From assembly GCA_023134135.1 (NCBI GenBank), contig JAGLVB010000012.1, positions 4,072 to 68,071 of the forward strand: 64,000 nucleotides of DNA, read 5' to 3'. Under the pieces are notes generated by a model, which had not been told where the DNA came from, searched no databases, and saw nothing but the letters and a program-made list of their open reading frames with translations. The first letter of the stretch is position 1; each line of letters starts with the position of its first letter. The stretch comes from Candidatus Aenigmatarchaeota archaeon. GTDB lineage: Archaea; Aenigmatarchaeota; Aenigmatarchaeia; QMZS01. Positions 2,050-35,907 of this stretch are shown here, piece by piece. Position numbers and translations under genes: made by a program.

Positions 2050-2236
2050 TAATAGTAATGTATTTCTTTTATATTAGGACCTTTTTTTACTCCTATTTAG
2101 AAAAGAAAATTTTGGGTTTTGAAAATACGATTTGAATGGGGTTATGGGAGTTTTTGGTGAATGAAGTAAATTATTCTCTAAATCCGGCTTTAATTTGTGG
2201 ATGGGAACTTTACTTAGTAATCTTTATAAATTATAA

Positions 2237-2403
2237 ATAAAGTTCCCCGACCTGAAGGACGGGGTATTTAAAAATTAGTAAAAATATTTAACCACCCTCT
2301 TTACATATCCCTCATACGCAGTGATTCGCTTTCTTAACCATTAGTATTTTTGTTTTTAGTGGATTTCAATCCCCAACCTAAAGGATGGGGTATTTGAGAA
2401 TAA
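2237..2403. repeat. paired-hairpin element, copy A (mini-array-like / MITE-like)
   Basis: Two direct ~40-nt repeats with hairpins CCCCGACCTGAAGGACGGGG and CCCCAACCTAAAGGATGGGG. Each is followed by GTATTT, and they flank a ~77-nt insert. Homologous to 8930-9091 and 44799-44961. Confidence 0.8.
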
Positions 2404-2534
2404 AAATTGACTGGGACGATATTGATGAAGTCGCCGAGAAAACAGTGTTATTCATTAACAGGATGGAAAGATTAATGGGAGAAATTGAGAACTAAAACAC
2501 ATTCAATTTACTATTTATCAAATAACTAACAATT

Positions 2535-2972
2535 ATGGATATTGAGGTTCTAAAAGAAGGAATAATTAATAAATTAAAGAGTCTTGAGTATTTTGACAAC
2601 TTACTATTCATATATGTTTTCGGTTCCCAAATTAGTGGAAATCCAAGAAAAGATTCTGACATCGATATATGTTTGTTTTATGAAATTGAAGATAAAAAAA
2701 AGTTGCACAAACTGGAATTAAAAGTAAAAGGCAGTTTCCCTGAAAAATATGATTTGCAGTTTTTCCAATCTCTTCCTCTATATGTAAAAAAATCCATCTT
2801 CAAAGGAAAATTAATTTACTGCAAAAATGAAAATCTTGTCTTTGACCTTGCTCTCAAAACATTCCGGGATTTTGAGGATTTTGAGCCAAAATATTTACTT
2901 TATATAGAAGATAATTATGGAACTAAAAACAAGGATAGAAGAAAAATTAGTGCGGTCTCGCGAAGCCCTTGA
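2535..2972 (+). CDS. minimal nucleotidyltransferase (MNT-type antitoxin)
   Basis: FGSQISGNPRKDSDIDICLF matches the GS...DxD nucleotidyltransferase signature. Small size, and it overlaps the downstream HEPN gene. Confidence 0.8.
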   Translation: MDIEVLKEGIINKLKSLEYFDNLLFIYVFGSQISGNPRKDSDIDICLFYEIEDKKKLHKLELKVKGSFPEKYDLQFFQSLPLYVKKSIFKGKLIYCKNENLVFDLALKTFRDFEDFEPKYLLYIEDNYGTKNKDRRKISAVSRSP

Positions 2973-3339
2973 AGAAATTGATGAAAACCTGCCGGAAAAA
3001 TTTGAAGAATTTCAGGAATTGGGTTTAGTAAAAGACGGAATCTACAAAAAAACAGAATTCATAATTCAAAATATATTGGACATTTGCGCAATTCTGGTTA
3101 AAAAACTTAAACTTGGCATCCCTGAAGATGATTTTGATATTCTGCAAAAACTAAACAAAACATTTGATAAAAAAACCATAAACAAAATAATTGAACTGCG
3201 AGGTTTCAGGAATTTTTTAGTGCATCGATATGGAAATATTGATGATGAAATTGCATTTGAAGATATTGAAACAGGTATAAAAGATTTTGAAAAAATCTTT
3301 GATGAAATTGAAAAGGTAATTAAAACCCAAAAAATCTAA
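2917..3339 (+). CDS. HEPN/DUF86-type toxin
   Basis: RNFLVHRY matches the Rx4-6H HEPN motif. Helical ~140-aa protein directly downstream of the MNT gene. Confidence 0.75.
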   Translation: MELKTRIEEKLVRSREALEEIDENLPEKFEEFQELGLVKDGIYKKTEFIIQNILDICAILVKKLKLGIPEDDFDILQKLNKTFDKKTINKIIELRGFRNFLVHRYGNIDDEIAFEDIETGIKDFEKIFDEIEKVIKTQKI

Positions 3340-6300
3340 GCAGTATATTCAACTTCTTCTACTTTACTTACTAATGGCGCATGTGTCGCCTTTTCAAAGT
3401 CTTCATAACTTTTTATCAATTTTTCAGGGATTGAAGGTCTCATATCCTTCAGAATTTCATCAAAATGTTTCTTTGTGACTTTATCATTCCCTTTGTGTTT
3501 CAGGCTTTCTTTTAATGCAAGCATTGTTGCTTCTTTGCATAAAAATTCCAAATCAGCCCCAGAGAAATTCTTTGTCTTTTTCGCAATTTCCTCAAGATTC
3601 ACATTTTTATCAATAGGAACATTTTTCGTGTGAACTTTCAGGATTTCAATTCTTCCCTTTTCTTCAGGAGCGGAAATTAATATGTGTCTGTCAAATCTTC
3701 CTGGTCGCAATAAAGAACTATCAACAATATCCGGTCGGTTTGTTGCTGCCATTATCACAACGCCTTTAATCTCTTCAATGCCGCTCATTTCTGTTAATAA
3801 CTGGGAAACCAGAGTATCAACAACCTCTGTTCTGCTTGTTCCCCTTGAATGGGTCATTGCATCAATCTCATCAAAGAAAATTATTGAAGGGGCTGACTGT
3901 TTTGCTTTCCTGAAAATTTCCCTTAATTTTTTCTCGCTTTCGCCAACCCATTTGCTTAACAATTCAGGTCCTTTTACAGAAATAAAGTTTGCGCCTGATT
4001 CATTTGCTACTGCTTTTGCTATCAAGGTTTTTCCTGTTCCCGGAGGACCATAAAGCAGGATTCCTTTTGGTGGAGTTAAATTAAATTTATCAAATTGCTC
4101 AGGATATTTCAAGGGCCATTCAATGACTTCTTTTAATTTCTGCTTAACTTTTTCAAGTCCTCCAACATCCGACCATTTCACTTTTGGTATTTCAATCAAA
4201 ACTTCTCTCAGCGCGGAAGGCTCTACTTTTTGCATTGCATAATCAAAATCCACTCTTTTTATAATCAATTTTTCCATCTGTTCCTCAGATAATTCCTGCC
4301 CTTTAAGAGAAGAAATATCCGGCAACACTCTTCTTAATGTGTGCATTGCGGCCTCTTTGCACAATGCTTCAAGGTCTGCGCCAACATAACCGTAAGTTTT
4401 TTCGGCAATGTCATATATCATCTTTTTTATAGAAGAAGAAACAATTTCTTCCATGAAATTTTTATTTATTACTTGATATTTTTCAAGTTTTTTATAAATA
4501 TCATCCACTTTAGTCTCTTCTTTTTCATTAATAGTTTTAGAAGGTATTTTATTTCTTGGATCCTTTTCCCCTCTTAATCGTCTTATATACTGGGTGGAAT
4601 TTATTTTTTGAGTTATTTTTTTTAAGATTTTTAAATATTTCTCTTTCTCTGTTGATAATTTCTTATTAAATTTAGTTATTTCAACAAGACCTTCTTTAGA
4701 TTCTTTTAGTTTAGTTTGAATATCCAATATTTTTTTTTCAATACCTCCAATATTATTTTCTAAAGACCTTAATTTATTTTCAATACCTCCAATATTATTT
4801 TCTAAAGACCTTAATTTATTTTCAATACCTCCAATATTATTTTCTAAAGAATTTAATATAGGTTCCTTGGATTTTACTTTATTTTCTAACTCCTGTAATT
4901 GAACATTTTTACCTCTTAATTTGAGCATTATCTTTTGTACGAGAGACTCAGAATTATAATTTAATTGTTTTTTAAGTTCTTGAATTTCTTCAATTATTGT
5001 ATTTCGTTCTAATAACATACTTCTTTTATCTGAATTTGTCCTGTCTAATTCCAAAAGCAACTTTTTTTTATCTGAATTTATCCTGTCTAATTCCAAAAGC
5101 AACTTTTTTTTATCTGAATTTATAGTCTCCACTTCCAAAAATAATTTTTCTTTTTCTGATTTATTTTCCTTTATTTCCAACTCATATAAAATTATCTTCT
5201 TTTTACACTCCACATTATAATTTTTAAGTTTATTTATCAACAATTCTGGGATAATATTTTTATCCCAAGCATATAAAGGCATATTCCTTGAGTGAATCTG
5301 CAGTATCTCGAGTCTGCCCTCGCTGTTTGGAATGCCAATCACAATTTCCCTGTCAAATCTTCCCGGTCTTCTTAAAGCGGGGTCTAAAGAATCCGGTCGG
5401 TTTGTTGCGCCAATCACAATTACCTGACCTCTTGTTTTTAATCCATCCATCATGGTCAGTAACTGAGACACAACTCTCCTCTCAACTTCCCCTGAAACAT
5501 CTTCTCTCTTCGGAGCAATTGCATCAATTTCATCAATAAATATTATTGAAGGCGCATTTTTCTCAGCATCATCAAATATTTTTCTCAAATTTTCTTCTGA
5601 CTGCCCATACCATTTGCTCATAATTTCAGGTCCCGCAATTGAATAAAATTTTACACCGCTTTCATTTGCAACTGCTTTCGCCAATAAGGTTTTTCCTGTT
5701 CCCGGGGGACCGTGCAATAAAACGCCTTTTGGAGGTTTAACACCTAATATCTCAAAAGGTTTATTGTGCCTCAATGGCAACTCAATAACTTCCCTCACAG
5801 AATCTATTTCTCTTTTCAGACCCCCAAGGTCATCATAAGTAACCCCGGAAATACTCTCCTCTTCCTTAACTTCAACAGCCTTCGAAATAACTTCTACCTG
5901 AGTTGCTTCTCCAATAAATCCGCCTTCTTTAGGAGAAACCTCAACAACAATAAATTGTATATCTCCAAGAGGATTAAAAGAACTAACATTTTCTCCAAAA
6001 AAACTATCAATAAATTTCTCAAGAAATTCTGAGTCTCTTCTCCTCATAACTGTTGGAACAAAAAGATCCCCTTTTGATACAGGTCTCTTGTATAAATTCT
6101 GGACTATGAACCCGGGGTCAATTCTTACCATAATACCTTTTTGAGCTGGAGCAATTACTATTTTTTTTGCTTCTGTTAACTCAGCCTTTCTCACCTTAAC
6201 TCTTTCTCCAACACCAGTCTGGCAGTTCTTTCTTGAAATTCCGTCAATCCTAATAATATCCAGACCAATATCGCTGGGATAAGATCTTATTGCAATCAGA

Positions 6301-6452
6301 TAAGTTTTCCTTTTTCCTTCCACTTCAATATATTCTCCTTCCCTGATGCCAAGTTTTATCATAAAATTTGAACTTAATCTCGCAATTCCTTTTCCATAAT
6401 CCTGCCTGTTTTCAGATAAGCCTCCAACAGTTAATTTTAAATCCTCATTCAT
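3336..6452 (-). CDS. CDC48/VCP-like AAA+ ATPase with large coiled-coil insertion
   Basis: CDC48-type N domain. Two AAA modules, each with GPPGTGKT Walker A and DEID Walker B. About 330 aa of repeat-rich coiled coil lie between [14 protein letters not shown] and [11 protein letters not shown] of D1. Confidence 0.9.
4739..4850. repeat. 42-bp tandem repeat (2.7 units) inside the CDC48 insertion
   Basis: caatacctccaatattattttctaaagaccttaatttatttt is repeated head to tail. It encodes [14 protein letters not shown] repeats. Confidence 0.9.
5024..5123. repeat. ~43-bp tandem repeat inside the CDC48 insertion
   Basis: ttatctgaatttatcctgtctaattccaaaagcaactttttt is repeated. It encodes [14 protein letters not shown] repeats. 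Confidence 0.85.
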
Positions 6453-6955: not shown

Positions 6956-7135
6956 GCCACGGTAGCTCAATCCGGTAGAGCACCGGTTTTGTAAACCGAA
7001 GGTTGTGGGTTCAATGCAACCCTTTTCATTGATGAAGCAAATGCTCGTCTTTCAGACGGCACCTCAATTTGCTTCGCAAATAGAGGAAAGGTCTGCACCC
7101 CAAAAAGGTGCAAAGTGAAAATCCCCCCCGTGGCT
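6956..7135 (+). tRNA. tRNA-Thr(UGU) with ~105-nt intron in the T-loop
   Basis: Acceptor GCCACGG/CCGTGGC (7/7), D arm GCTC..GAGC, anticodon loop TTTGTAA. The T-stem 5' half GTGGG-TTCAA at 7005-7014 is separated from AAATCCCCC at about 7120-7127. One mismatch each in the anticodon stem and T stem. Confidence 0.75.
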
Positions 7136-8718: not shown

Positions 8719-8929
8719 ATTTACACCACTTTTCAGTTAGAAAAGCATTTAATTATATAACTTTAAAGTATATAAAGACTTCGGTCTTCTAATATATATT
8801 TTACACTATAAAATAATTACAGTTTCAGTTATATTTATGCTACTTTCCATAACTAATACACTTTTTGAATTATATGTTAATAGTACTAAAATAATTTTAT
8901 TTTTTGGACTGAAAATCCATATTCTCAAA

Positions 8930-9091
8930 ATAAAGTTCCCCGCCACAGAGTGACGGGGTATTTAAAAATTAGTTAAAATATTTACTCCACTTCTCTATTA
9001 TATCCACAGTGATTCGCTTTCTTAACCATTAATATTTTGTTTTTAGTGAATTTCAATCCCCGCCACAGAGTGACGGGGTATTTGAGAATAA
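8930..9091. repeat. paired-hairpin element, copy B
   Basis: AAAGTTCCCCGCCACAGAGTGACGGGGTATTTAAAAATT ... ATTTCAATCCCCGCCACAGAGTGACGGGGTATTTGAGAATAA. Near-identical to copy C. Confidence 0.85.
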
Positions 9092-14786: not shown

Positions 14787-15890
14787 ATGCAAATCTTAAG
14801 AAAATCAAATTGGGAAGGGTTTGAAAAAACCAGAAAAATGAAGAGAATTGAGATTATCAACGTTGTTAAAAAATCAGGGTTGAAAGGGAGGAGCGGTTCC
14901 AATTTCTTCACAGGATTGAAGTGGGAACTTATGGGAAAAGGAACAAGATATCTTATTTGTAATGCTGATGAAAGCGAACCCGGGACCTTCAAAGATAAAT
15001 TTATAATGGAAAATAATCCTTCTCTGTTAATTGAAGGCATTGCAATTGCATCCTATGCAATGGACATTCATTCAGCGATTATTTATCTTAGGGGAGAATA
15101 TTTTCACCTTAAACCAAAACTTGAAAAATTAATAAAACAATCTGAAAAACACCTGAAGAAAATAAAACTGAAAATAAAAATTGTTCTTGGAGCAGGTTCT
15201 TATCTCTGCGGAGAAGAAACAGCCATCCTTGAATCTATTGAGGGAAACAGACCTTTAGTCAGGAAAAAACCTCCCTACCCATCCCAATCAGGATTGTATG
15301 GAAAACCAACCTGCATAAATAATGTTGAGACTCTCGCGAATATCCCGTTGATTATTCTTGGGAACTGGGACAATAATCTGCAGTTATTTTCCCTGTCAGG
15401 AGATTTAAATGAACCGGGAATTTATGAGATTGAACTTGGAATGCCATTAAAACATATTGTATCTCTGGGAAAACCAAAAAACGAACCAAAAGCAGTTTAT
15501 TTCGGTGGTTCTGGGGGATGCATCCCTTACCAAAAATTCAAAAATCTGCGGGTTGATAATGAATTAATTTCAGAAAAAGGGGGTTTCCTCGGAGCAAGAG
15601 GTCTGATAATTGTTGGGGAAAACAGAGATATTGTGGATATCTCAAGAACCTTAAGCGAATTCTTTGTGCACGAAAGTTGCGGATACTGCACCCCCTGCAG
15701 GGAAGGAAACTTCAGGGTTGTTGAACTCCTTGAAAAAATTGAAAATAACAAAGCAAAAAAAGATGATGTTAAACTTCTTGAACAACTCGCATACCACATC
15801 AGCGACACATCTTACTGCGCCCTCGGGGTTGCATCAACAACTCATTTAAAATGCGCATTAAAATATTTTAAAAAGGAATTCAAAGTATGA
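14787..15890 (+). CDS. NuoF/HydB-like NAD(P)H- and FMN-binding subunit
   Basis: GLKGRSGSNFFTGLKW, ICNADESEPGTFKD, ESCGYCTPCREG (4Fe-4S). Confidence 0.85.
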   Translation: MQILRKSNWEGFEKTRKMKRIEIINVVKKSGLKGRSGSNFFTGLKWELMGKGTRYLICNADESEPGTFKDKFIMENNPSLLIEGIAIASYAMDIHSAIIYLRGEYFHLKPKLEKLIKQSEKHLKKIKLKIKIVLGAGSYLCGEETAILESIEGNRPLVRKKPPYPSQSGLYGKPTCINNVETLANIPLIILGNWDNNLQLFSLSGDLNEPGIYEIELGMPLKHIVSLGKPKNEPKAVYFGGSGGCIPYQKFKNLRVDNELISEKGGFLGARGLIIVGENRDIVDISRTLSEFFVHESCGYCTPCREGNFRVVELLEKIENNKAKKDDVKLLEQLAYHISDTSYCALGVASTTHLKCALKYFKKEFKV

Positions 15891-17581
15891 AAATAAAACT
15901 AAATGGAAAATGGGTCTTAGCAGAAGAAGGAGAAACAATTTTAAAAGTTGCGGAGAGAAATAAAATTCACATCCCAACTTTATGTTATCACCCGGATTTG
16001 AAACCTCAGGGAAGGTGCAGGGTTTGTCTTGTTGAAGTTCATGGCAAATTAGTAACCTCATGCGATACAAAAATCAAAGATAAAATGGAAATTATTACAA
16101 ACACAAAAAGAGTTGCGGACGCAAGAAAATTAAATATAGAACTTTTATGCAGCAATTATTCAGGAGAAAAAGAACTTGAATTCTCTGTTGTCGCAAAAGA
16201 ACTTGGGATAAAAAAATCAATATTTGAAAAAACAATCAAAGAAATTAAATCTCCGATGGAAAAAGATAATATGAAATGTTTATTATGCGGGAGATGCGTG
16301 CAGGTATGCGGAGTTGTGCAGAAAATAAATAATATTGAATTTGCTGGCCGCGGAGTATCTTCCCGTATAACCATTCCTTATGATCTATCCGTAAAAGATA
16401 CTCCATGCACTTTCTGCGGACAATGCGCTTTGTATTGCCCAAGCAACGCCATAAGAGAAAAAGCATACAATAAAAAAGCTGTGAAAACTATGATGGAAGA
16501 AATGGATAAACTTATAAACAAGAAGAAATTTGTTATTGCGCAAACCGCTCCTGCGGTCAGAGCCTCCCTCGGAGAAATGTTTGGAATGAAACCAGGCACT
16601 TTAGTTACAGGAAAAATGGTGACTGCTTTGAGAAAAATTGGTTTTGATAAAGTCTTTGACACTGACTTCGGTGCGGATTTAACAATTATGGAAGAAGCGA
16701 GCGAGTTTATTGAGAGAATGAAAAGCAAAAAAAACCTTCCGTTGATTACCTCCTGCTGTCCCGCATGGATTAAATTTGCTGAACAAACTTATCCGTTTTT
16801 GCTTAAAAATATTTCAAGTTGCAAATCACCCCACCAGATGGTTGGAGCTATTGCAAAAACCTATTATGCTCAGAAAATTGGGGTGAAACCAGAAGATCTT
16901 ATGGTTGTTTCAATAATGCCCTGCATTGCAAAGAAATTCGAGGCAAATAGACCTGAACTGAAAACCGCGGGATGCAATGATGTTGATGTTGTGTTAACAA
17001 CCAGAGAAATTGGGAGGATGATTAAAACAAAAAATATTAATTTCACCAAACTAAAAGATGAAGAATTTGATGAACCTCTTGGAATTTCTTCTGGTGGGGG
17101 TGCAATATTTGGAGTGACTGGGGGGGTAATGGAAGCCGCACTCAGAGTTGCTTATGAAATTCTCACAGGAAAAATATTGCAAAAATTGGATTTCATTCAA
17201 GTAAGAGGACTTGAAGGTATAAAAGAATCTGATGTAAAAATTGGCAATCAGACAATAAAAGTTGCAGTGGTGCATGGGCTTGGAAATATAAGAGAATTTA
17301 TTGAAAGTGGAAGATGGAAAAATTATCATTTTATAGAAATGATGGCATGTCCAGGAGGATGCATTGGAGGTGGAGGACAGCCAAGACCAACCACAAATGA
17401 AATCCGCAGGAAAAGGATGGAAGCGATTTACAGGCAGGATAAAAGTATGGAACTAAGAATGTCAAACAAAAATCCGGCAGTTCAAGAACTTTACTCAGAA
17501 TTTTTGGGAAAACCTCTTGGGAAAATGTCAAAGAAATTATTGCACACTAAATACAAGAAAAGGAAAGTTAAATTTACTTAA
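15887..17581 (+). CDS. hydA: [FeFe]-hydrogenase catalytic subunit HydA
   Basis: H-cluster motifs TSCCPAW, MPCIAKKFE and MACPGGCIGGGGQP. N-terminal 2Fe-2S and 2x[4Fe-4S] ferredoxin-like Cys clusters. Confidence 0.9.
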   Translation: MKIKLNGKWVLAEEGETILKVAERNKIHIPTLCYHPDLKPQGRCRVCLVEVHGKLVTSCDTKIKDKMEIITNTKRVADARKLNIELLCSNYSGEKELEFSVVAKELGIKKSIFEKTIKEIKSPMEKDNMKCLLCGRCVQVCGVVQKINNIEFAGRGVSSRITIPYDLSVKDTPCTFCGQCALYCPSNAIREKAYNKKAVKTMMEEMDKLINKKKFVIAQTAPAVRASLGEMFGMKPGTLVTGKMVTALRKIGFDKVFDTDFGADLTIMEEASEFIERMKSKKNLPLITSCCPAWIKFAEQTYPFLLKNISSCKSPHQMVGAIAKTYYAQKIGVKPEDLMVVSIMPCIAKKFEANRPELKTAGCNDVDVVLTTREIGRMIKTKNINFTKLKDEEFDEPLGISSGGGAIFGVTGGVMEAALRVAYEILTGKILQKLDFIQVRGLEGIKESDVKIGNQTIKVAVVHGLGNIREFIESGRWKNYHFIEMMACPGGCIGGGGQPRPTTNEIRRKRMEAIYRQDKSMELRMSNKNPAVQELYSEFLGKPLGKMSKKLLHTKYKKRKVKFT

Positions 17582-20211: not shown

Positions 20212-20284
20212 AAAATTGTAAAATATTATAATTTAAATACTTTATTCTAACACCTGCTCGGCAGATTTATGGGATTTCTTATGA

Positions 20285-22355
20285 GTTTCAATCCTTATTT
20301 TACTGGACCTATTTCTAAAACCCAAAAGCAAAAGAAGAGAGGAAATACTCAAAGTAAGTTTCAATCCTTATTTTACTGGACCTATTTCTAAAACATTTCT
20401 TTTCTTTGCCACAAAATCAGAACCTTTAATGTTTCAATCCTTATTTTACTGGACCTATTTCTAAAACTTTTTTCCCAACCCTTTATACCTCTCATATTTT
20501 ATTGTTTCAATCCTTATTTTACTGGACCTATTTCTAAAACTTTCTTGACTTAATAGGAACCGACTTAATTCACAAGTTTCAATCCTTATTTTACTGGACC
20601 TATTTCTAAAACAAGTAATTCATTCCGGCAGAATAACCATCCTTTTAGTGTTTCAATCCTTATTTTACTGGACCTATTTCTAAAACTCTTTCTTTAGTGT
20701 TGAGATAATTCATAAAAGATAAGTTTCAATCCTTATTTTACTGGACCTATTTCTAAAACTAAACTCTTTATTTAAATGTCTTCCCACTCTGGACTGTTTC
20801 AATCCTTATTTTACTGGACCTATTTCTAAAACAGAATTGAGAGAACATATATACAAAGGAGTATTATTGTTTCAATCCTTATTTTACTGGACCTATTTCT
20901 AAAACAAGACCTCTTCCAAACTTTGCTATCTTATATTTCAGTTTCAATCCTTATTTTACTGGACCTATTTCTAAAACCCTAAAAGAATCAAAAAGAAATG
21001 TCTTAATTGTGGGTTTCAATCCTTATTTTACTGGACCTATTTCTAAAACATAACTTAATTTGTTTAGATTGTGCAAAAGAATTAAGTTTCAATCCTTATT
21101 TTACTGGACCTATTTCTAAAACTTCAGAACCTGATTGTATGGAAATAGTAGAACAAAGTTTCAATCCTTATTTTACTGGACCTATTTCTAAAACGAAGAA
21201 CCAAAAAAACCAAAAGAGGAAGAAAAGGTGTTTCAATCCTTATTTTACTGGACCTATTTCTAAAACTTTCAAGTTCAATAACCACTTTGTTAGTAATATC
21301 AAAGTTTCAATCCTTATTTTACTGGACCTATTTCTAAAACAGGATTACAATACCCGGACCAACAAGAGAAATTTAGTTTCAATCCTTATTTTACTGGACC
21401 TATTTCTAAAACTCGCTCTCTCGCTTTGTTTTTCGCTTGAATGGTCGTGTTTCAATCCTTATTTTACTGGACCTATTTCTAAAACTTTCTTTAATTGCAT
21501 TTCTAATTTCCTCTTCAGTTCTGTTTCAATCCTTATTTTACTGGACCTATTTCTAAAACTATATTTTGTCTTAGCTCTTCAAGATATTCAATAATATTTC
21601 AATCCTTATTTTACTGGACCTATTTCTAAAACATTTGGGTTTTATCCAAAACCTCTTCAGCTTTATTATTTCAATCCTTATTTTACTGGACCTATTTCTA
21701 AAACAACTCAGCGTACGAATACACTTTCGTATTATCCTATTTCAATCCTTATTTTACTGGACCTATTTCTAAAACAGATTTATATCATATGTTCCCGCTT
21801 TTTCAACCAAATTTCAATCCTTATTTTACTGGACCTATTTCTAAAACATGCACGTAAGAGCAGAGAAGCAAGCAATACACATATTTCAATCCTTATTTTA
21901 CTGGACCTATTTCTAAAACCTATTGACTATATATAAGAATAAAAATTAAACAAAATTTCAATCCTTATTTTACTGGACCTATTTCTAAAACAGGTTCTAT
22001 TGATGTAAGAACAGGTTCAATAGTAGTATTTCAATCCTTATTTTACTGGACCTATTTCTAAAACATATGGAAAGTGATGAAAGATGTTGTATTGATACAA
22101 ATTTCAATCCTTATTTTACTGGACCTATTTCTAAAACAAAAAAGTATTTCCTGTCTATAATCCCAACTTTGATATTTCAATCCTTATTTTACTGGACCTA
22201 TTTCTAAAACTTTAATTCCCTCTCCACTCCTGCTTCTCTAATACAGATTTCAATCCTTATTTTACTGGACCTATTTCTAAAACTTAAATTGTTCATTCAT
22301 AATATTCAACCCTCATATATTTCAATCCTTATTTTACTGGACCTATTTCTAAAAC
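20285..22355 (-). CRISPR. CRISPR array, 29 repeats of 37 nt, 28 spacers of 34-37 nt
   Basis: Plus-strand repeat is GTTTCAATCCTTATTTTACTGGACCTATTTCTAAAAC. Its reverse complement ends ATTGAAAC (canonical 8-nt 5' handle), so it is transcribed on the minus strand from the cas4 side. Repeats 19-29 (from 21596) begin with A instead of G. All spacers are unique. Confidence 0.97.
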
Positions 22356-22453
22356 AGCACCTGAAACTTCCTTTTCTTGCTGTTTCGGGCGATTTTAATT
22401 CGCCAATTTCCTCATATATAGTTTTTATCATTTTCTTTATAAAGACATGCAAA
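22356..22453 (-). promoter_or_regulatory. CRISPR leader
   Basis: 98-nt AT-rich segment between the cas4 stop and the first repeat. Contains a TTTATAAAG TATA-like box and hairpin GGCGATTTTAATTCGCC (22388-22404). Confidence 0.6.
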
Positions 22454-23038
22454 TTAGACGCAAATCCGCCTGTAACAACAATCAACACACCTCATCTTAT
22501 AACTTGTTTTTTTAGGATATAAACCTTTTTGAACAATATTTAAAACTTCATTTATAATTTCAATTGCTCTCTCAAAGTCTTTTTCTTTAAATTTAATCTC
22601 TTCTACCTTATTATTACTTCTAATATAACACACAAAACCTCTGTTAACTCCAATATTATAAACTTCCCTCATCATCAGACCGTACAAAATTGACTGGAAT
22701 TTGTGAGTTTTGTAAGTTGTTTTCTTAAATTCCGCAAATTTGAAATCAAATGGGGCGGCTGTGCCATCTTCAAGAAACAATGCCTGATCAACTTCTCCTT
22801 TGATATGATATTTTTCAGAAGACAAGTAAACCTCATCCTCTTTCCTTATACAGTTTAATTTTTTCCTCAGGTAATTCTTATTGAATTTCTCTTTTACTTC
22901 ATGTATTTCTCTTCCTTTCAGAACTTTATATCTTTTCTCCTCATGCTGCGGAATCCCAAGACAATAGATAAAATATACAAATCTGGGGCAGAATAAATAT
23001 TCAATAACATCCGAAACATTTATAAAGGCATCCCCCAT
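22454..23038 (-). CDS. cas4: Cas4 (RecB-like nuclease with 4-Cys cluster)
   Basis: N-terminal YLFCPRFVYF and C-terminal CVDCCYRRIC cysteines. Adjacent to cas2 and the array. Confidence 0.9.
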   Translation of the reverse strand: MGDAFINVSDVIEYLFCPRFVYFIYCLGIPQHEEKRYKVLKGREIHEVKEKFNKNYLRKKLNCIRKEDEVYLSSEKYHIKGEVDQALFLEDGTAAPFDFKFAEFKKTTYKTHKFQSILYGLMMREVYNIGVNRGFVCYIRSNNKVEEIKFKEKDFERAIEIINEVLNIVQKGLYPKKTSYKMRCVDCCYRRICV

Positions 23039-23325
23039 TAAATAAACTTGGTAAGTATCTTATCACTAACAAGTTCCCTATCAAAGGATTTCCCTATTAA
23101 TTTTGCTTTTTTGAAGTCCTCTTCGCACATCGGGAAAATATACACAGAATCTTCGTCTTCTATTAGTTCTTCGCATCTCAAACCCAATTCGTCTATCTCG
23201 TTTTTGTTTATGTCTCCAAGAAAAGCGCTCATCTGCACCCTGTATAATCCATAGTTTTTGCAGAATTTCGCAATATTATTTCTGATTCTATCCTCAGAAA
23301 TATCATAGATTACCCAGACCAGCAT
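23038..23325 (-). CDS. cas2: Cas2
   Basis: 95 aa, MLVWVIYDIS...YGLYRVQMSAFLG...SVYIFPM ferredoxin-like pattern. TAATG overlap with cas4. Confidence 0.9.
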   Translation of the reverse strand: MLVWVIYDISEDRIRNNIAKFCKNYGLYRVQMSAFLGDINKNEIDELGLRCEELIEDEDSVYIFPMCEEDFKKAKLIGKSFDRELVSDKILTKFI

Positions 23326-23326
23326 A

Positions 23327-24652
23327 TTAAAATTTAATTAACAAAAATAACCATACAGGTATGAAATACAGATTGTTTTTAAACTCAAAAATATCTCTTG
23401 TAACTATTATTCCAAAATCGCAATTATATTCTTTCATGAAAGTCCTAATATTTTCCAGTTCTTTATTTTGAATTCTGCTTTTGTATTTTACCTCAACAGG
23501 CACAATTTTTTCATTATTTACAATAACATCAATCTCCTGATCTTTTTTATTTCTCCAGTAAGACAGATTGAAATATCTGTTCAGGTGGTTGTATACAAGA
23601 GTCTCAGCTTTAAATCCAACATCAATAGGATGCAGGGCTTCGAATGAAATATCCGCAATGTATATTTTTGGATTCTTTTTAATTTGTTTGGAATCTGAAA
23701 AAGCGTAAGATTTCTTAATCAGGTAGCTGGTATTCAGATAAGAAATATAAGTTTTAAGAGTTTCATGTTTAATGCCATATAATTTTGTGAGATTATCAAA
23801 ATTAATTATATTGCTGGTGTTCTTCACAAAATAAACAAACAGGGATTCCAGCACATCAATTCTTTTTACTTCAAATAAATTCACAATATCCCTGTAAAAA
23901 GTCAGATAAGTTATTGTTTTTAGTTTTTCTTTTAGGTGTTTTTCATCTTCGTAAGTTCCCGCAAAACCCCCGAATTTGAAATATTTGTTGAAATATATTT
24001 TTAGTTTTTCAGAGTTAATTAAAACATTATTTAGTTTTTTGGAACTTTTGTTTAAATCTGAAATATTTAATTCAGGGGAATCAATATTTATCTTGTTGTA
24101 TTTCAAAAATTCATGGAATGAGAAAGGGTGGAGTTTTTTTATGGATATTCTTCCAACTAAACTTTCTCCCGCTCCTTTCAGGAGATACATACTTGAAGAA
24201 CCGGATATTACAAATTTTAGTTTTTTTGTTTTATCATAGAAATTTTTTATCTGGCTGCTCCAGTTTTCAATATGCTGGGTTTCATCAAAAAATATGTAAA
24301 CTGTGTTTTTTAGTTCTGTCAGGGATTCTTCCAGTTGGGTTTCCAGATAAATATCAATAAGATAGTTTATAATTCTTTCCTCTTTGTATACATAAGGGTC
24401 ATCAAATGAGAAATAGAAAATCCTTTTTGGATTAACGCCTTTTTTTATCAGGTTGTCTATGGATTGCATCATAATCGTTGTCTTGCCGACCTGTCTCAAA
24501 CCTGTAATTGCGCATATTTCCTGTTTTTTCAGGGTTTCCTTAATTTCTTTATAAATATCTCTTTCTATGAGGTTTTTGTCTAAATCAACTTTTCCGGTCT
24601 GCCACCAGGGATTGCTTCTTGCAATCTCCTTTATAAATTCTGTTTTGTCCAT
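23327..24652 (-). CDS. AAA+ ATPase with C-terminal PD-(D/E)XK-like domain (COG1373/DUF4143-type)
   Basis: NPWWQTG, Walker A GLRQVGKTT, Walker B IFFDETQ, C-terminal EIDVIV...VPVEVKYK. The stop lies 1 nt from the cas2 ATG. Confidence 0.8.
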   Translation of the reverse strand: MDKTEFIKEIARSNPWWQTGKVDLDKNLIERDIYKEIKETLKKQEICAITGLRQVGKTTIMMQSIDNLIKKGVNPKRIFYFSFDDPYVYKEERIINYLIDIYLETQLEESLTELKNTVYIFFDETQHIENWSSQIKNFYDKTKKLKFVISGSSSMYLLKGAGESLVGRISIKKLHPFSFHEFLKYNKINIDSPELNISDLNKSSKKLNNVLINSEKLKIYFNKYFKFGGFAGTYEDEKHLKEKLKTITYLTFYRDIVNLFEVKRIDVLESLFVYFVKNTSNIINFDNLTKLYGIKHETLKTYISYLNTSYLIKKSYAFSDSKQIKKNPKIYIADISFEALHPIDVGFKAETLVYNHLNRYFNLSYWRNKKDQEIDVIVNNEKIVPVEVKYKSRIQNKELENIRTFMKEYNCDFGIIVTRDIFEFKNNLYFIPVWLFLLIKF

Positions 24653-24681
24653 TATTTAGTTAGTATTTATATATAAAAAGG

Positions 24682-24733
24682 ATTCCGTTGCAGTGGAATT
24701 AAAACAGGGAATAAGTTCCGTTGCAGTGGAATT
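24682..24733 (-). promoter_or_regulatory. tandem dyad-symmetric repeats upstream of the ATPase-cas2-cas4 TATA box
   Basis: TTCCGTTGCAGTGGAATT occurs at 24683-24700 and 24716-24733 (33-bp period, stem TTCC/GGAA). A TATA-like TTTTTATATATAAA lies between them and the ATG at 24652. Confidence 0.5.
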
Positions 24734-24819
24734 GGCTAAATTCTTGAAATTGTTCCAAATCCTCTTGAGACTGATTTTTTAAATTTGAAAGACTTATAAC
24801 AATAATTCATCTAAGAACA

Positions 24820-25632
24820 TTATACATCCACCCATAATTCTTCCACAATATCTCTTCCTTTCAATATCTTACCTTCTTTTATTAATTTCACAAAATAAGG
24901 CTCTTTTTTAATTTTTTGGCTAAAACCTAATTTTGATAAAATATTAAGATGTAATTTTGAATAAGGGCTCTTATCTACTATTTCTTCTATTCTTTTTTTA
25001 TCTTGTGGTATATCAACCACCACAAATATATCAGTATCACTATATTTATCATATTCTGGGGTGATGCTAGAACCATATTGTATTATAATTCTAACAGACT
25101 TTTCATTTAAAAGGTATTTCATCAAATCAATTTTTTCAAAAGAAACAAGTTGTGCTGAAATTTCCTGTAATAAATTATTAATCTTGCTCTCATTTAGCTT
25201 ATATTCTACAGGTTTCTGTGAAATTCTAGCTACAATTTTTTGTTTTTCAAGCTCTTTTAATGCGTCTATTATAATAGGTTTCGAATATTTTAATTTCACA
25301 GCTATTACTTCCAAAGTTATTACTATATCTGGTTTAAAACAAGAAAGAACTTTGATAACACGTTTTTTCATAAAAATATCAATAAACTCTGTTCGATTGA
25401 TAGATAATAACAACAATTCATTAAATTTACTCACCAGAAGATTATCTAAATTATAATCAACAATATATTTTTTATTCTCCTTAACTCGTTTTATAAATCC
25501 TTTGTGCTCTAATCTTCCTAAAAGTTTAGATATGTATGATTTTGAATATTTGAATAACTCTCTAATTTCTTTTTGTGTTTTTCTACCATGCATCAAAAGA
25601 TATAACAATATCTTAATTTCCTTTAAAGACAT
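24820..25632 (-). CDS. double winged-helix protein fused to a nucleotidyltransferase domain
   Basis: N-terminal wHTH (KTQKEIRELFKYSKSYISKLLGRLEHKGFIKRV) and a second wHTH (IIIDALKELEKQKIV). C-terminal QYGSSITPEYDKYSDTDIFVVVD matches the NTase GS..DxD motif. Confidence 0.7.
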   Translation of the reverse strand: MSLKEIKILLYLLMHGRKTQKEIRELFKYSKSYISKLLGRLEHKGFIKRVKENKKYIVDYNLDNLLVSKFNELLLLSINRTEFIDIFMKKRVIKVLSCFKPDIVITLEVIAVKLKYSKPIIIDALKELEKQKIVARISQKPVEYKLNESKINNLLQEISAQLVSFEKIDLMKYLLNEKSVRIIIQYGSSITPEYDKYSDTDIFVVVDIPQDKKRIEEIVDKSPYSKLHLNILSKLGFSQKIKKEPYFVKLIKEGKILKGRDIVEELWVDV

Positions 25633-25643
25633 AATTAACTTTT

Positions 25644-25671
25644 AGGAAACTTATATATATAAAGGTTTCCT
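25644..25671 (-). promoter_or_regulatory. inverted repeat bracketing a TATA-like box upstream of the wHTH-NTase gene
   Basis: AGGAAAC-ttatatatataaag-GTTTCCT lies 12 nt upstream of the ATG at 25632. Confidence 0.45.
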
Positions 25672-25677
25672 TTTTCT

Positions 25678-26130
25678 TTACTTTTGTTCTAATAAAACTA
25701 ACATTTTCTTGCCTTCTGAAGTTAAACAAAACATATTATCATTTATAAAGAGATATTTACAAAATTTTATACAATCCAGTATCTCTTTTATCCGAGCTTC
25801 ATTTTCATTATTAAAATGATGTAAGATCTGTTTATAATTCTTTGATTCGTTCAAGAATCTCATCAATTTATAAAATAATAGATCTTGACGATTACTTAAT
25901 TTCTTTTTTCCTTTTATAATATTTTCTATTCTCTTACAAAACTTTTTCTTTGTACCAATTTCAGATTCTTTCCTAACATATTCTTCATTTAAATTTGCTT
26001 TTTTTATTATACTCGTGGCTTCTTCGTGATATAATTCTGCTTCAGGATTATCTTCAGAATATATAAGTTTGTGCATCTCTGCATTTTCTAATAGACTTTT
26101 TGCTTTCTTCACCGATTTCTTCTTTGACAT
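25678..26130 (-). CDS. small Lys-rich protein with probable C-terminal winged helix
   Basis: 150 aa with a C-terminal ...YKQILHHF...IKEILDCIKFCKYLFINDNMFCLTSEGKKML wHTH-like pattern. Overlaps the cas5 3' end by 77 nt in another frame. Confidence 0.5.
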   Translation of the reverse strand: MSKKKSVKKAKSLLENAEMHKLIYSEDNPEAELYHEEATSIIKKANLNEEYVRKESEIGTKKKFCKRIENIIKGKKKLSNRQDLLFYKLMRFLNESKNYKQILHHFNNENEARIKEILDCIKFCKYLFINDNMFCLTSEGKKMLVLLEQK

Positions 26131-27115
26131 TTATTAACACCTTTTTTATTTTTAAAATAACTGATGAAATTGCTGTTTCAGTCAAATCTTTTTTAACACC
26201 TTTACTAACTAAACGCAAGCAATCATAATATTTTACCTTTTTTAGATTTTTAGTTAGCTCTATTTGAGTGAGACTTTGATGTAAATATAGATTAATTGAA
26301 ATAATTGTCCTCAACATATATAATATAAGTTTTGCTTTTTCTTGATTAGTAATATTTTTTGATTTACTAGCAATAATACCTTCTTCTATTTCGGATAATC
26401 TTTTTGAAATAGACAATTTATCAATTTGAACATCTTTCCAAGGCAAGGCAACATATTTTTTTAATCCTCTAGCTCTAATCATTACACAATTTTTACAAAT
26501 AGCATTTTCTATCACCGGATATGGAAACATATTTATCATTACACCCCTCATTACATTGGAAACTAAGGGATCAACTGGATGATTAACTAAACATATATCC
26601 ACAGTTTTTTTTGGTTCGTATCCTTTTTCATTTATTCTTAATTTTGCTTTTCCTCTAAAACTCCCCAATCTAATAATTAATTGTTTTTCTATTTTCTTTT
26701 CTTCATTGTCTACAATTATATATCCTTCAAATTCTGTTTCTGGTGCAATAGAAAATAGTTGCGATGATTTTAATACCTCTGCTTTTCCAGTTGAACTGCC
26801 ATAACCTCTAACTAAAAAACCATCTGAATCTCCTTTAACAGTTTCAGAAATATAATTTACATTTCCTTTGATTCTTGCTGGAGTGAGATAAAATCCCAAA
26901 TCTTTTATAAAAGAATTTTTATATCTTGGTGTATTTCTACCACCATTTTCTTCAGAAATTATATATGGTTGGTTTATTTCTTTTCCTAAAGCATAAACAA
27001 CAGCATGATTTATTGCGGTAGCATGTAAATATTTTGGTGTTATTGCTCCAGCCAACCCTTCACGAGAGTAAAACAAAGGGTCTAAAAGTTTTATTGTATA
27101 TTTAAATATTATCAT
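26054..27115 (-). CDS. cas5: Cas5 (Csc1-like, type I-D) with ~110-aa C-terminal extension
   Basis: N-terminus LLDPLFYSREGLAGAITPKYLHATAINHAVVYALG is Csc1/RAMP-like. Sits directly downstream of csc2 with a TAATG overlap. Confidence 0.7.
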   Translation of the reverse strand: MIIFKYTIKLLDPLFYSREGLAGAITPKYLHATAINHAVVYALGKEINQPYIISEENGGRNTPRYKNSFIKDLGFYLTPARIKGNVNYISETVKGDSDGFLVRGYGSSTGKAEVLKSSQLFSIAPETEFEGYIIVDNEEKKIEKQLIIRLGSFRGKAKLRINEKGYEPKKTVDICLVNHPVDPLVSNVMRGVMINMFPYPVIENAICKNCVMIRARGLKKYVALPWKDVQIDKLSISKRLSEIEEGIIASKSKNITNQEKAKLILYMLRTIISINLYLHQSLTQIELTKNLKKVKYYDCLRLVSKGVKKDLTETAISSVILKIKKVLINVKEEIGEESKKSIRKCRDAQTYIF

Positions 27116-27909
27116 TATATTAATTTTTCTTTTTTCAATTCTTTCTTAAATTTATTATCTAAATCCTTATAGGCCTTATCAACTTTTGGTAATTTAGAAT
27201 CCAAAGTATTCAATTCCCCTTTTATTTTATCAAGACCTTTACTTACTAAATCAATTGTATTCAAATCTTCTCTATCTGACAAATTACAACCCAATATCTC
27301 AGTTCTCACTTTTCCCCACTCAACAGTTCTTGCACCAAGTCTTGACAATCTGTTTATATTATCCACAACTATGGAAACAATTTCTGGGGTTGGGTCTCTT
27401 ATAGTAATAACTCCTAAAAATTCTGTTTCTGCTGGAACTTTAATAATATTCATTAATGCTTGTCCAGTCGTTAAATTTTTTTCATCCACAGCATTTGCAG
27501 TATAAGGTTCTATTTCTTTTGTTTCTTCAATCGAAATAAAAGTTTCTCCTAAAATTCTTGCTAGAATATTATAATGAGCTTTTGTATTGCTTGTTTCGCC
27601 AGTACCTCCAAATATGAAGCAACTTGGACACCTCATACAAAGATTGTCTTTTAAATGGCAATTGGATTCTATGTTAAAACCTCTCTGTTTTTCCATTACA
27701 AGTCTTCTTAATTTTGCTTTTACTTTCCTCCAAGGAATTATGAATCTATTACCTAATTCTTTGTATTTATATGTTAAAACTTCTTCATTATCATTGCTAC
27801 GAATAATTGCATCATCTAAGAATTTCAATTTTATAACTAATTGCAAATATCTACCTTTTGATAAAATTGTTGTTTCCTCCAACAAATCACTAGTTTTTAT
27901 TTCAGTCAT
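27115..27909 (-). CDS. cas7: Cas7 (Csc2-like, type I-D backbone subunit)
   Basis: RAMP-like protein with CMRCPSCFIFGGTGE (Cys pair plus glycine loop). Sits between the large subunit and cas5. ATGA overlap with cas10d. Confidence 0.7.
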   Translation of the reverse strand: MTEIKTSDLLEETTILSKGRYLQLVIKLKFLDDAIIRSNDNEEVLTYKYKELGNRFIIPWRKVKAKLRRLVMEKQRGFNIESNCHLKDNLCMRCPSCFIFGGTGETSNTKAHYNILARILGETFISIEETKEIEPYTANAVDEKNLTTGQALMNIIKVPAETEFLGVITIRDPTPEIVSIVVDNINRLSRLGARTVEWGKVRTEILGCNLSDREDLNTIDLVSKGLDKIKGELNTLDSKLPKVDKAYKDLDNKFKKELKKEKLI

Positions 27910-30551
27910 TTTTTATCACCTTCATTATTATTTTCTTTTAAATCATTTATAAGATTAGGATAACGATTAAAAACAAAAATTGCAGACAACAATGCGTTTT
28001 TTATCCTTATAAATTGTGTTATATTGGCTTGTTTCAAGTCATAGTATCTTTTTATCTTTAATTTAGCTTCCTTTACAAACTCTTTCAATTCTACAATATC
28101 TGTATTTGCACCAGCCTTAACCTCTGATTTTTCTTTAGCAATATTTTCTCTTATTTGTGCCAAAAATTTAGCAAAAGATACTTCAAAATCATTCCCTTGT
28201 AAAATTTCATTCATTGTTTGACTTATGGGTTTGGTTATTAAATGTTTAGTACGTGGTTTACTCCATTCAGTAGTCCAACAAAATTTTGGTATTCCTTCTG
28301 CAAAAAATATTGCATCATTTAATAAATCTTTCATAATATAAACACAGTTATTTATTTTAAATAGTATTTGATTAGAAGAATATACAAAACCAAAAAATGA
28401 GTTTATAAGTTTTTTATTGAATTTTAAACAAGGATTTCCCGATTTATCTTTGTCTTCCTGACCGGCATACCTAAAAGCAACACTTGGTGATTTTTCCAAT
28501 AGATTTTTAGCAAAAATAAATCTTTTCTGTTTCCATTTTTTCTTATTTTGTTGTTTATAAAATAAAGTAGAGGCAAGTAGAATAACTGCAAGAGACTCAT
28601 TGTATTTTTCTTCAGTAGTAATTACATTTTCTCCAAACAAACCAATTTGTTCCTCTGTACCTATACTTACTTTAAAACCTAATAGATTTAAAACATGGTA
28701 TAAAGGTTCATATTTTACTTTATAATCTTTTGGACTAAAATCTTTCAAATCAACTCTCGATTCAATTTTGATTATAAGTCCTCTTTCTGTTTCTATTATC
28801 TCTCTATCTTTTAATTCGCCTTCTTTTTCTATGAAAGGAATTGGTATCAAAATTGGATTGATTCCTCTCTTAGGAAGCAACAACGCTCTAAGTTCTTCCT
28901 TTTCCTCAAATTTTATTATAGAACTTGGATTTGTAATCCCCGCACAAAGATTTTTTATAAATCTATATATTTTTTCATCTGTTTGTTTTATTTCATTTGG
29001 AATTTTTGATTCAATTTTGACATAAATCGCAGAAGAATCTGCACTCATATTTTTTCTTAAAATCATGTTATCATAAGCGCAAAAAATGCATGTCGCATTG
29101 GCTCCTTGTGGCTTTGCTTTTATTTGTGAAAACCCATAACCCCCACCTTTTTTAAACATTAAACTAGGTTTTGCATCCATAGCCAATATACAACCACATC
29201 TTTCGCACAAACCTTTACTTGAGTTTGTAGTTCTTTTATAAGCTTTATATCTTTCAAAAATCTCTTGTGCAACTTCTCTAAAATCTTTCTCTTCTTCAGC
29301 AGTAATTAAATTATCAATAGTACCCTTCAATTGTTCAATTTTTGCTTTATCTTCACTATCTTCAGCTATTTTACTTAGTACACTAAGCAGTTCATCTTTC
29401 CTTATTTCTGATAAAAATTTGTTGGAGATATTTGTATTATAATATCTGATGGGCGATATATCAGAAAGCCGTATTTTTTCAAGTAATTCATTTATTTTTT
29501 CTGTATTTATTGATGATGGTTTTTCATTAAAATATTCATTCCATTGTTCTTTTGCTCGTTTATGTCCTGAAGTATATAAACAACTTGATAGAAAATTCAA
29601 TAGTTTATATTGTTTTTTCAAATTTTGAATTTCTTTATTTTGACTTAGATTAACTAAATCATATAATAATCTAAAAAACTGATTACCTTTTTTATCAACA
29701 TTAGATAAATTCTCTTTTATTTCCTCCTTTTTTCTTTCTAACTTTAAAAATTGAAATGGAAATATTTGAGAAAGACCCCCTAATATGTTTTTTGTTGGAT
29801 GATAAACCGGATAAAGTTGCATGGTTTCTTCAAAAAATCTATTTAAAATCTGGTTGGTAATCTTTTCTTTTTCTGGCATTTTTGCATTCTTACCAATAAA
29901 CACACAACTATTATCCAATACTATCAAAGGAGTCCATCCATTTTGTTTATAAACTTTTATTCCTTCTTCAACAAAAAGCATTGTTGTTGGTGATGGAAAT
30001 CTTGATATCTCGAAATAAGTCAAATCCGCCAATTTTAATTCACCTAAATATTCTCTAATCTCTTGGATTAAATTATAATTAACATTTTCCATAGATGCGA
30101 GATGGTCGCACCATTTCAAAATCTTCGTTTTGACTCCTACAGAGTTTGTTGTTATTTCATTAACATTTTTATCAGATATGCTGTGATGTGTTAAAATAAT
30201 ATCATAAATTTCCTTTATTTCTTCTTTAGAAAAAGAATAATTGGTATAAGCCTCAACATATTTTTTAATCTCGGTTAATATGGGTTTGTGCCCTTCTTTA
30301 ATTGGTTTACCACCACCACTCTTAAACAGCTCCTGATATTTTGGATTTCTTTTTTCAAGGTCATGAATCAAACATGCCATTTCAAGTAATTTTTTATCGT
30401 TTTTGTTTTTCTTCAAATAAGGTATATATTCAGAGATTTCTTTAAATATATTCCAAACCGTAAAATGATGCATCCATAATTGCTCTCCATTTGATTTTGC
30501 CAGATAGCCTACCTGTGGTTCCAAGATTTTAATTACTTCTTCTTTTTCCAT
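27906..30551 (-). CDS. cas10d: Cas10d-like large subunit (Csc3) with N-terminal HD nuclease domain
   Basis: HD residues WMHH, LIHDLEK, GHK, LTHHS, WCDH in the first ~160 aa. Zinc-finger-like CERCGC...CIFCAY. 881 aa, between the cas3' helicase and cas7. Confidence 0.75.
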   Translation of the reverse strand: MEKEEVIKILEPQVGYLAKSNGEQLWMHHFTVWNIFKEISEYIPYLKKNKNDKKLLEMACLIHDLEKRNPKYQELFKSGGGKPIKEGHKPILTEIKKYVEAYTNYSFSKEEIKEIYDIILTHHSISDKNVNEITTNSVGVKTKILKWCDHLASMENVNYNLIQEIREYLGELKLADLTYFEISRFPSPTTMLFVEEGIKVYKQNGWTPLIVLDNSCVFIGKNAKMPEKEKITNQILNRFFEETMQLYPVYHPTKNILGGLSQIFPFQFLKLERKKEEIKENLSNVDKKGNQFFRLLYDLVNLSQNKEIQNLKKQYKLLNFLSSCLYTSGHKRAKEQWNEYFNEKPSSINTEKINELLEKIRLSDISPIRYYNTNISNKFLSEIRKDELLSVLSKIAEDSEDKAKIEQLKGTIDNLITAEEEKDFREVAQEIFERYKAYKRTTNSSKGLCERCGCILAMDAKPSLMFKKGGGYGFSQIKAKPQGANATCIFCAYDNMILRKNMSADSSAIYVKIESKIPNEIKQTDEKIYRFIKNLCAGITNPSSIIKFEEKEELRALLLPKRGINPILIPIPFIEKEGELKDREIIETERGLIIKIESRVDLKDFSPKDYKVKYEPLYHVLNLLGFKVSIGTEEQIGLFGENVITTEEKYNESLAVILLASTLFYKQQNKKKWKQKRFIFAKNLLEKSPSVAFRYAGQEDKDKSGNPCLKFNKKLINSFFGFVYSSNQILFKINNCVYIMKDLLNDAIFFAEGIPKFCWTTEWSKPRTKHLITKPISQTMNEILQGNDFEVSFAKFLAQIRENIAKEKSEVKAGANTDIVELKEFVKEAKLKIKRYYDLKQANITQFIRIKNALLSAIFVFNRYPNLINDLKENNNEGDKK

Positions 30552-30555
30552 TCAA

Positions 30556-32169: not shown

Positions 32170-32217
32170 AACTTACAACTACTTAATTTTTATAACTTCT
32201 TTAAATACCCCAACACT

Positions 32218-32859: not shown

Positions 32860-32874
32860 AACTTAATTTAAATA

Positions 32875-34921: not shown

Positions 34922-34924
34922 ATC

Positions 34925-35905: not shown

Positions 35906-35907
35906 AA

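Follow-up and report, generated by a model that had tools for sequence, protein, structure and literature searches.

A 64,000-nt stretch of a Candidatus Aenigmatarchaeota contig (JAGLVB010000012.1, positions 4,072 to 68,071; hereafter, the window) carries three dispersed copies of a repeat of about 160 bp with paired hairpins, one of which is followed by the bases that close the newest repeats of a nearby array of clustered regularly interspaced short palindromic repeats (CRISPR). The question raised by this locus is whether the repeat is a product of the CRISPR system or a small mobile element. The evidence points to the latter: each repeat is probably a ~159-nt non-autonomous insertion element of the IS200/IS605 type, a palindrome-associated transposable element (PATE). 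The window is part of European Nucleotide Archive (ENA) scaffold ZHAN22-2_SAMN18200499_METAG-scaffold_10 (248 kb), has a GC content of 33% and encodes archaeal housekeeping functions (TFIIB, CDC48, RFC, ribosomal proteins). The closest homologues of its CDC48 (93-94% identity) and of its histidine phosphatase (86-87%) are named Candidatus Aenigmatarchaeota, which identifies the host as a DPANN Aenigmarchaeote.

The three copies lie on the same strand and, counted with an adjoining AATAA, occupy plus-strand coordinates 2236-2403 (copy A), 8929-9091 (copy B) and 44798-44961 (copy C). All run, with sharply defined limits, from AATAAAGTT to TATTTGAGAATAA and have an identical orientation, in agreement with the first-pass annotation, which had placed three paired-hairpin copies here. 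Copy A (2236-2398, minus strand; nhmmer E=2e-55), with its left end (LE) at the high coordinate and its right end (RE) at the low one, represents an A-type subfamily. Copy B (8929-9086, minus strand), the one named in that annotation, and copy C (44798-44956, minus strand), located between convergent genes for His_Phos_1 and uracil phosphoribosyltransferase (UPRTase), are of the B type. The AATAA motif (TTATT on the minus strand) abutting the LE lies at 2399-2403 in copy A, as read from the sequence, at 9087-9091 in copy B and at 44957-44961 in copy C. Copies B and C are 96% identical and copy A is about 83% identical to either; the earlier observation that the insert between the hairpin units is conserved was borne out (83-100%). 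Element length varies from 158 to 163 nt, and the longest internal open reading frame (ORF), of 9 to 17 codons, is not the same between copies and is too short for a transposase. Relative to shuffled sequence, a 24-nt core is found three times (0 expected) and the hairpin pattern five times (0.16 expected).

Read on the minus strand, each copy consists of TTATT followed by CTCAAATA, a hairpin, ATTGAAAT, a core of ~70 nt, TTTTTAAATA, a second hairpin and AACTTTATT. The hairpins are imperfect palindromes of 20-21 nt, in direct orientation, situated 8 and 9 nt from the ends. In copy A the RE palindrome spans 2245-2264 (plus-strand CCCCGACCTGAAGGACGGGG) and the LE palindrome 2371-2390 (CCCCAACCTAAAGGATGGGG). 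The corresponding positions are 8938-8958 and 9058-9078 in copy B and 44807-44827 and 44928-44948 in copy C, all on the minus strand. In copy B, AAATA precedes the RE palindrome and AACTTTATT, the element terminus, comes after it; the LE palindrome has CTCAAATA before it and ATTGAAAT behind it, the latter being the stretch in common with the CRISPR repeat. Both hairpins of B and C have the sequence CCCCGCCACAGAGTGACGGGG, with one stem mismatch in hairpin 2 of copy C, at the LE (CCCCG...CTGGG). The hairpin previously written as CCCCG-CCACAGAGTGA-CGGGG thus describes B and C and does not hold for A, which has a different loop. The 5-bp stem proposed for it was too short: in B and C the minus-strand stem comprises 9 bp, including one G.T pair, and has a folding energy of -8.6 kcal/mol as DNA (z = -5.0 for the RE palindrome of copy B as single-stranded DNA). 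The A and B types differ in the loop and upper stem of both hairpins, with a compensatory G-C to A-T pair that also distinguishes the LE from the RE hairpin of copy A. The change of one pair on both sides in copy A indicates that the hairpins within a copy evolve together and that the structure is kept; such concerted change is expected if one protein reads both hairpins.

Comparison with relatives revealed precise absence of the repeat. The CDC48 orthologues led to syntenic Aenigmarchaeota loci L020-L022 (ERZ27248307, GCA_964562245.1 and JGI 3300021512) and L023/L024 (GCA_030600555.1 and Logan SRR18936875), and the element was not found in any of these five. At site B, both flanks align with L023 and L024 at 80-89% and the element is exactly missing. 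The empty site in L023 reads TCAAAAATAA followed by TTTGATT, with a single AATAA, where the window has CTCAAAATAA, the insertion AGTT...GAGAATAA, and then TCCGATT. At site A, homology of the helicase-side (left) flank in L020 and L022 runs through TTATAAATTATAAATAAA and stops at the element boundary. Site C is less informative: L042 and L043 are without the copy, but the region is rearranged, so this is not a clean empty site. A further locus, upstream of an alpha/beta-hydrolase gene that recurs in many samples (more than 24 short contigs), exists in both states, being without the element in L032, L033, L035, L038, L039 and L040 and with it in L001, L031 and L034. The empty form (six retrieved contigs) reads ...TTTTTTCTAAAATAAAAGAGGGGG and the filled form ...TATTTGAGAATAAAAGAGGGGG; the presence of AATAA in the empty form implies that the right-hand AATAA pre-exists in the target.

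Two insertions outside the window complete the set. Copy A2, on a short scaffold from the same metagenome (L041), is 100% identical to copy A and has flanks of its own, GCAAATCTTATTTATT on one side and, on the other, AAGATGG, the start of an MmeI-like methyltransferase gene. Identity of A and A2 at different loci of one metagenome is a sign of recent activity. The copy on L001, a contig of a metagenome-assembled genome labelled 'Methanophagales', is 94% identical to copy A and was the lone extra copy from the public collections scanned (exact-pattern, genome_contigs). TTATT abuts the minus-strand LE in all five independent insertions (A, A2, B, C and L001), and the element's RE also ends in TTATT. 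The repeat is therefore a mobile unit with sharp ends, precisely absent from sister species, with a constant TTATT and paired direct hairpins. It has no terminal inverted repeats (TIRs), the ends AATAAAGTTCCCCG... and ...CGGGGTATTTGAGAATAA not being mutual reverse complements outside the hairpin stems.

From this anatomy we infer the transposase family, the active strand and a single-strand mechanism. On the minus strand, each hairpin has AATA immediately 5′ of its foot, a tetranucleotide that can pair with TATT or TTAT within TTATT; the plus-strand feet differ from one another (AGTT, CAAT). According to the model, a Y1 (HUH) transposase acting in trans would read the hairpins in single-stranded form, with the AATA at each hairpin foot as a guide that would pair both with the target TTATT and with the one closing the element's right end. 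Excision would give a single-stranded circle, which would insert 3′ of a TTATT, the target not being duplicated. The common orientation of the three window copies is weakly compatible with the lagging-strand bias of the IS200/IS605 family. A minus-strand ORF (MVKKANHC...) starts 58 nt from the left end and its length is not conserved; that it is a relic of a tnpA start is speculation.

These features recall well-characterized systems. In IS608, subterminal imperfect palindromes occur on the active strand, the target oligonucleotide lies 5′ of the LE outside the element, the RE is cleaved ~10 nt 3′ of its hairpin, 4-nt guides 5′ of the hairpin feet pair with the cleavage sites, and target bases are neither gained nor lost upon insertion (PMC3201880, PMC5934647). 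The present element resembles IS608 (Helicobacter pylori) and ISDra2 in its one-strand subterminal palindromes, its target 5′ of the LE, its 4-nt guides and the distance between RE cleavage site and hairpin (9 nt, against ~10 nt). It differs in having no tnpA or tnpB, in its target (TTATT, rather than TTAC or TTGAT) and in that the target equals the RE cleavage sequence, so that both guides are identical. PATEs were defined in Haloquadratum as elements without inverted repeats, with similar near-terminal palindromes, too short to encode a transposase and with a targeting oligonucleotide of 4-6 nt; HqIRS46 of Haloquadratum walsbyi has an exact 22-bp duplicated palindrome (PMC3119063). Like these haloarchaeal elements, the repeat is short, transposase-less and devoid of TIRs, has near-identical direct-repeat palindromes and a conserved terminal or targeting oligonucleotide, varies in presence between strains and occurs in homogeneous copies (more than 90% identical). 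It shares no sequence similarity with them and belongs to another host lineage (a DPANN Aenigmarchaeote, plus the copy by ANME-1 DNA described below). Moreover, haloarchaeal PATEs are tied to ISNph and ISHwa elements, whereas no related IS605-type transposon was found here. The PATE-like elements of Geobacillus stearothermophilus that carry omega-RNAs of TnpB (PMC10055086) similarly reduce to minimal LE and RE sequences with conserved target-adjacent and element-end motifs (TAM/TEM) and predicted mobilisation in trans; here, neither a TnpB gene nor, in Rfam, an omega-RNA scaffold was found, and 159 nt would barely be enough for one. Repetitive extragenic palindromes (REPs) and REPINs mobilised by RAYT (TnpA-REP) are likewise short, intergenic, IS200/IS605-related palindromes on which a Y1 enzyme acts in trans (PMC3333891, PMC8266576). 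REPs are single palindromes of 20-40 nt or inverted pairs, with a conserved 5′ tetranucleotide and a link to a RAYT gene, whereas here two direct hairpins bound an all-or-none 159-nt unit. In 436 kb (the window plus related loci) there were no solo hairpins and no RAYT or Y1 gene, hairpins always occurring within the complete unit, and the REP/REPIN class was rejected. Integron attC-like sites and Helitron or IS91-type ends were also discarded, since none of them fits a fixed unit that has paired direct hairpins and inserts at TTATT. With this repeat, the known stock of small mobile elements in DPANN archaea gains one that has hairpin ends and no transposase.

Several observations weigh against assignment to the IS200/IS605 type. 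No Y1 transposase, TnpB or longer element with these ends was detected in the 436 kb, Pfam scans included, and a Y1-motif regular expression run over 372 kb matched nothing. A single exact-match scan each of the genome and metagenome collections uncovered no cognate transposon, nor did four viral-contig scans that included LE and RE hairpin patterns, or blastn against plasmid and phage collections; the metagenome and viral pattern matches were chance matches of 19-34 nt. Between the LE cleavage site and its hairpin there are only 8 nt, as against 19 nt in IS608, and guide and target are AT-only tetranucleotides in a genome of 33% GC, such that their complementarity carries little information. 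The L001 insertion is not a simple filled/empty pair, since its ANME-1 relative (L026) runs into unrelated sequence and has no AATAA at the breakpoint. Finally, the target is the pentamer with which the right end terminates, so the filled sites equally fit a 5-bp duplication of AATAA. One AATAA in empty sites and two in filled ones is exactly the outcome expected if another transposition system, with a strict AATAA target, generated a 5-bp target-site duplication. On that view, AGTT...TTTGAG, of 154 nt, would be the element proper and the hairpins would be protein-binding or regulatory sites. The failure to find an IS200/IS605 transposase favours such a scheme. We nevertheless hold it to be unlikely: transposons that make duplications normally have the terminal inverted repeats missing here, an invariant 5-bp duplication in five of five insertions would denote an unusually strict target choice, and subterminal hairpins in direct repeat with identical 5′ feet are a hallmark of single-strand (Y1) transposition (PMC3201880). 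Less probable still is a structured noncoding RNA or a cis-regulatory cassette such as a promoter, spread by or exapted from a mobile element and acting on neighbouring genes. Four of the five copies do lie upstream of a minus-strand gene: that of the DEAD helicase, that of TFIIB, a small one next to hicA in L001, and that of the MmeI-like methyltransferase, with its ATG 3 nt beyond the element. Folding of the minus strand is favourable (z = -4.2), and TTTTTAAATA, upstream of the RE hairpin, resembles an archaeal TATA box. Yet copy C sits between convergent 3′ ends, sister species keep the same genes without the element, no Rfam family matches, the fold z-score comes largely from the two self-complementary hairpins, and just four distinct sequences are available for covariation outside these.

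The CRISPR connection, from which interest in the repeat arose, is highly improbable. It would have the minus-strand transcript cut by Cas6b after the first hairpin, leaving ATTGAAAT as the 5′ handle of a CRISPR RNA (crRNA)-like molecule. CreTA/CreA antitoxin RNAs and virus-borne mini-CRISPR arrays are the crRNA-like systems to compare; as in these, two repeat-like units surround a short insert and one unit ends in the resident 8-nt handle. Regulators of the CreTA type lie within or beside the cas operon and have a neighbouring toxin gene, the promoter of which is partially complementary to the pseudo-spacer. The array itself (window 20284-22368, minus strand) has 29 repeats of minus-strand sequence GTTTTAGAAATAGGTCCAGTAAAATAAGGATTGAAAT/C. 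The 11 leader-proximal ones end in ATTGAAAT (final T) and the 18 older ones in ATTGAAAC (final C), which suggests that a repeat variant was fixed while the array grew. The first-pass annotation was correct in stating that the element's GGATTGAAAT, located directly after a stable hairpin, is also the end of the leader-proximal type I-D repeats (the 11 newest of the 29) and that ORF 35908-36558 encodes a Cas6, here Cas6b. The likeness, however, is limited to the last 10 of 37 nt. In global alignment to the CRISPR repeat, three of the four element units scored no higher than shuffled sequence, a 10-mer in common with the CRISPR repeat occurs in 7 of 387 random 165-nt windows (1.8%), and ATTGAAAT has 16 further occurrences in the window. 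The insert, ~70-77 nt long, is two to three times the length of the array spacers (35-37 nt) and is conserved rather than locus-unique; the second unit is without the handle. The copies lie 11-22 kb from the CRISPR-cas locus among unrelated genes, with no adjacent toxin, and one is in an ANME-1 context; precise presence or absence at a fixed TTATT is foreign to CRISPR arrays. Complementarity of the insert to promoters or cas genes, raised as a possibility before, did not materialize: comparison with the rest of the window, cas promoters included, gave only low-complexity AT-rich 12-13-mers. Rfam searches at gathering and permissive thresholds returned no family for the element, the sole pointer towards CRISPR being a sub-threshold CRISPR-DR10 match (14 bits, E=2.3). 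A one-spacer mini-array and a Cas6-processed, CreA-like regulator are thus both unsupported. The 10-base match is probably coincidental. Most simply, ATTGAAAT after the left-end hairpin would be part of a conserved left end and not necessarily a CRISPR handle, and it could be conserved for a reason unrelated to CRISPR because bases 3′ of the IS608 left hairpin join the recognition network (PMC5934647). An unlikely further possibility is that the left-end hairpin and ATTGAAAT are also cut by the resident Cas6b. Of the third idea put forward at the outset, a non-autonomous IS200/IS605 PATE or miniature inverted-repeat transposable element (MITE) that had captured a repeat end, the first part is upheld by the empty sites, the TTATT target and the anatomy of the ends, while the capture is without support. 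The analysis removes a false CRISPR-like lead and leaves a repeat whose ends, target motif and subfamilies are precisely described.

The type I-D locus (window 22454-36558) encodes Cas4, Cas2, Csc2/Cas7d, an HD-domain Cas10d-like protein, Cas3', Cas1 and Cas6b, in a split arrangement. Cas4 and Cas2 lie by the array and are followed by an AAA_14/DUF4143 ATPase, a MarR-nucleotidyltransferase fusion and the effectors; further on come a second AAA_14/DUF4143 ATPase, on the opposite strand, and then Cas1 and Cas6b. ORFs 25678-26130, 26054-27115 and 32875-33234 have no Pfam match, and 32218-32859 has only a weak, sub-threshold one.

The repeat breaks metagenome assemblies. This population is represented in two other assemblies, the public metagenome-assembled genome GCA_030631635.1 and a Logan assembly, and in these every copy is the point at which contigs begin or terminate (L013, L014, L016, L018, L019): L013 and L014 stop inside copy B, and L018 and L019 start inside copy C. 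At 6665-6840 of L013 (GCA_030631635.1, DAOVKR010000032), the MNT/HepT flank of copy A is connected to the methyltransferase flank of A2, as seen by comparison with window 2236-2404 and L041 65-240. Given the separate, identical copy A2 on L041, this junction is better explained as a chimeric join made by the assembler between identical repeats than as a natural rearrangement at copy A. The element is thus probably behind at least one chimeric contig in a public metagenome-assembled genome.

This precedent bears on the L001 copy (4970-5141), which recurs at 5740-5907 in L031 and 118-285 in L034 and was compared with 8140-8300 of L026. The left 5 kb of L001 encodes a fused MFS/spermidine synthase 95% identical to that of ANME-1 GoMg2, with many Methanophagales relatives, and is 94-96% identical at the DNA level to ANME-1 contigs L025-L030; judged by these identities, it is genuine ANME-1 DNA. 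Homology between L001 and L026 ends exactly at the element end (L001 position 4972). Beyond the element lies a low-GC hydrolase/YdeI cassette (34.5% GC, against 41.6% on the left), and the same flank-element-hydrolase junction is crossed by Logan contig L034 (SRR18936875). The overlap between ANME-1 flank and element appears too short for a false k-mer join, so the element copy most probably abuts ANME-1 DNA. The join to the hydrolase side could be an assembly artefact, given the case of L013. Tentatively, and with more doubt than confidence, one may envisage a single element family active both in the Aenigmarchaeote (four copies) and in ANME-1 (one copy, seen in two assemblies), with a habitat in common and recent DNA traffic between the two. 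If so, the element would mark a physical association of Aenigmarchaeotes with ANME-1 or a common pool of mobile elements or viruses, and, if the ANME-1 copy is genuine, it would provide a concrete, easily tested marker of recent DNA exchange. The added interest of the element rests on this possible cross-phylum distribution; the hosts and partners of Aenigmarchaeota are poorly known (PMC8407114).

In its element-free form, the hydrolase locus (L033 1-330; also L035, L039 and L040) has upstream the 3′ end of a tyrosine-recombinase gene (...TTEIYTHV...), followed by three copies of GAAGTTCGTATATA; the hydrolase/YdeI cassette may belong to an integrative element. Toxin-antitoxin genes adjoin two of the insertions. 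An MNT/HepT pair (window 2535-3339, plus strand) lies between CDC48 and the DEAD helicase; it is missing in L023, where the CDC48-helicase gap is 85 nt, and L022 retains only a 54-aa HepT fragment. Copy A borders on this lineage-specific insertion; similarly, the L001 copy adjoins a HicA/HicB pair.

Other peculiarities of the window were recorded. CDC48 (3336-6452, minus strand) is 1038 aa long, compared to ~810 aa in the 93-94%-identical orthologues, and within the additional ~228 aa the coding sequence has two tandem arrays of a 42-nt (14-codon) unit (4731-4857 and 5024-5164). At 6956-7028 (plus strand) Rfam identifies a tRNA above the gathering score (35 bits), whereas ARAGORN reports zero tRNAs in the window. 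Between the His_Phos_1 stop codon and copy C, a GC-richer stretch (44700-44790) forms local hairpins (GGACCGTCAACGCAACTCCTGTGTCC...), for which Rfam yields nothing at E<=1. At 1.6 kb from copy C is a gene for an ISAzo13-family DDE transposase (46600-47793, plus strand); the assemblies consulted contain it once, and it has no sequence in common with the hairpin element. L042 and L043 have neither this gene nor the surrounding block from UPRTase to orotidine monophosphate (OMP) decarboxylase. Lastly, at 14787-17581 (plus strand) a gene for a NuoF-like flavoprotein stands beside that for an [FeFe]-hydrogenase large subunit, and the pair is kept in Aenigmarchaeote loci L023 and L024.

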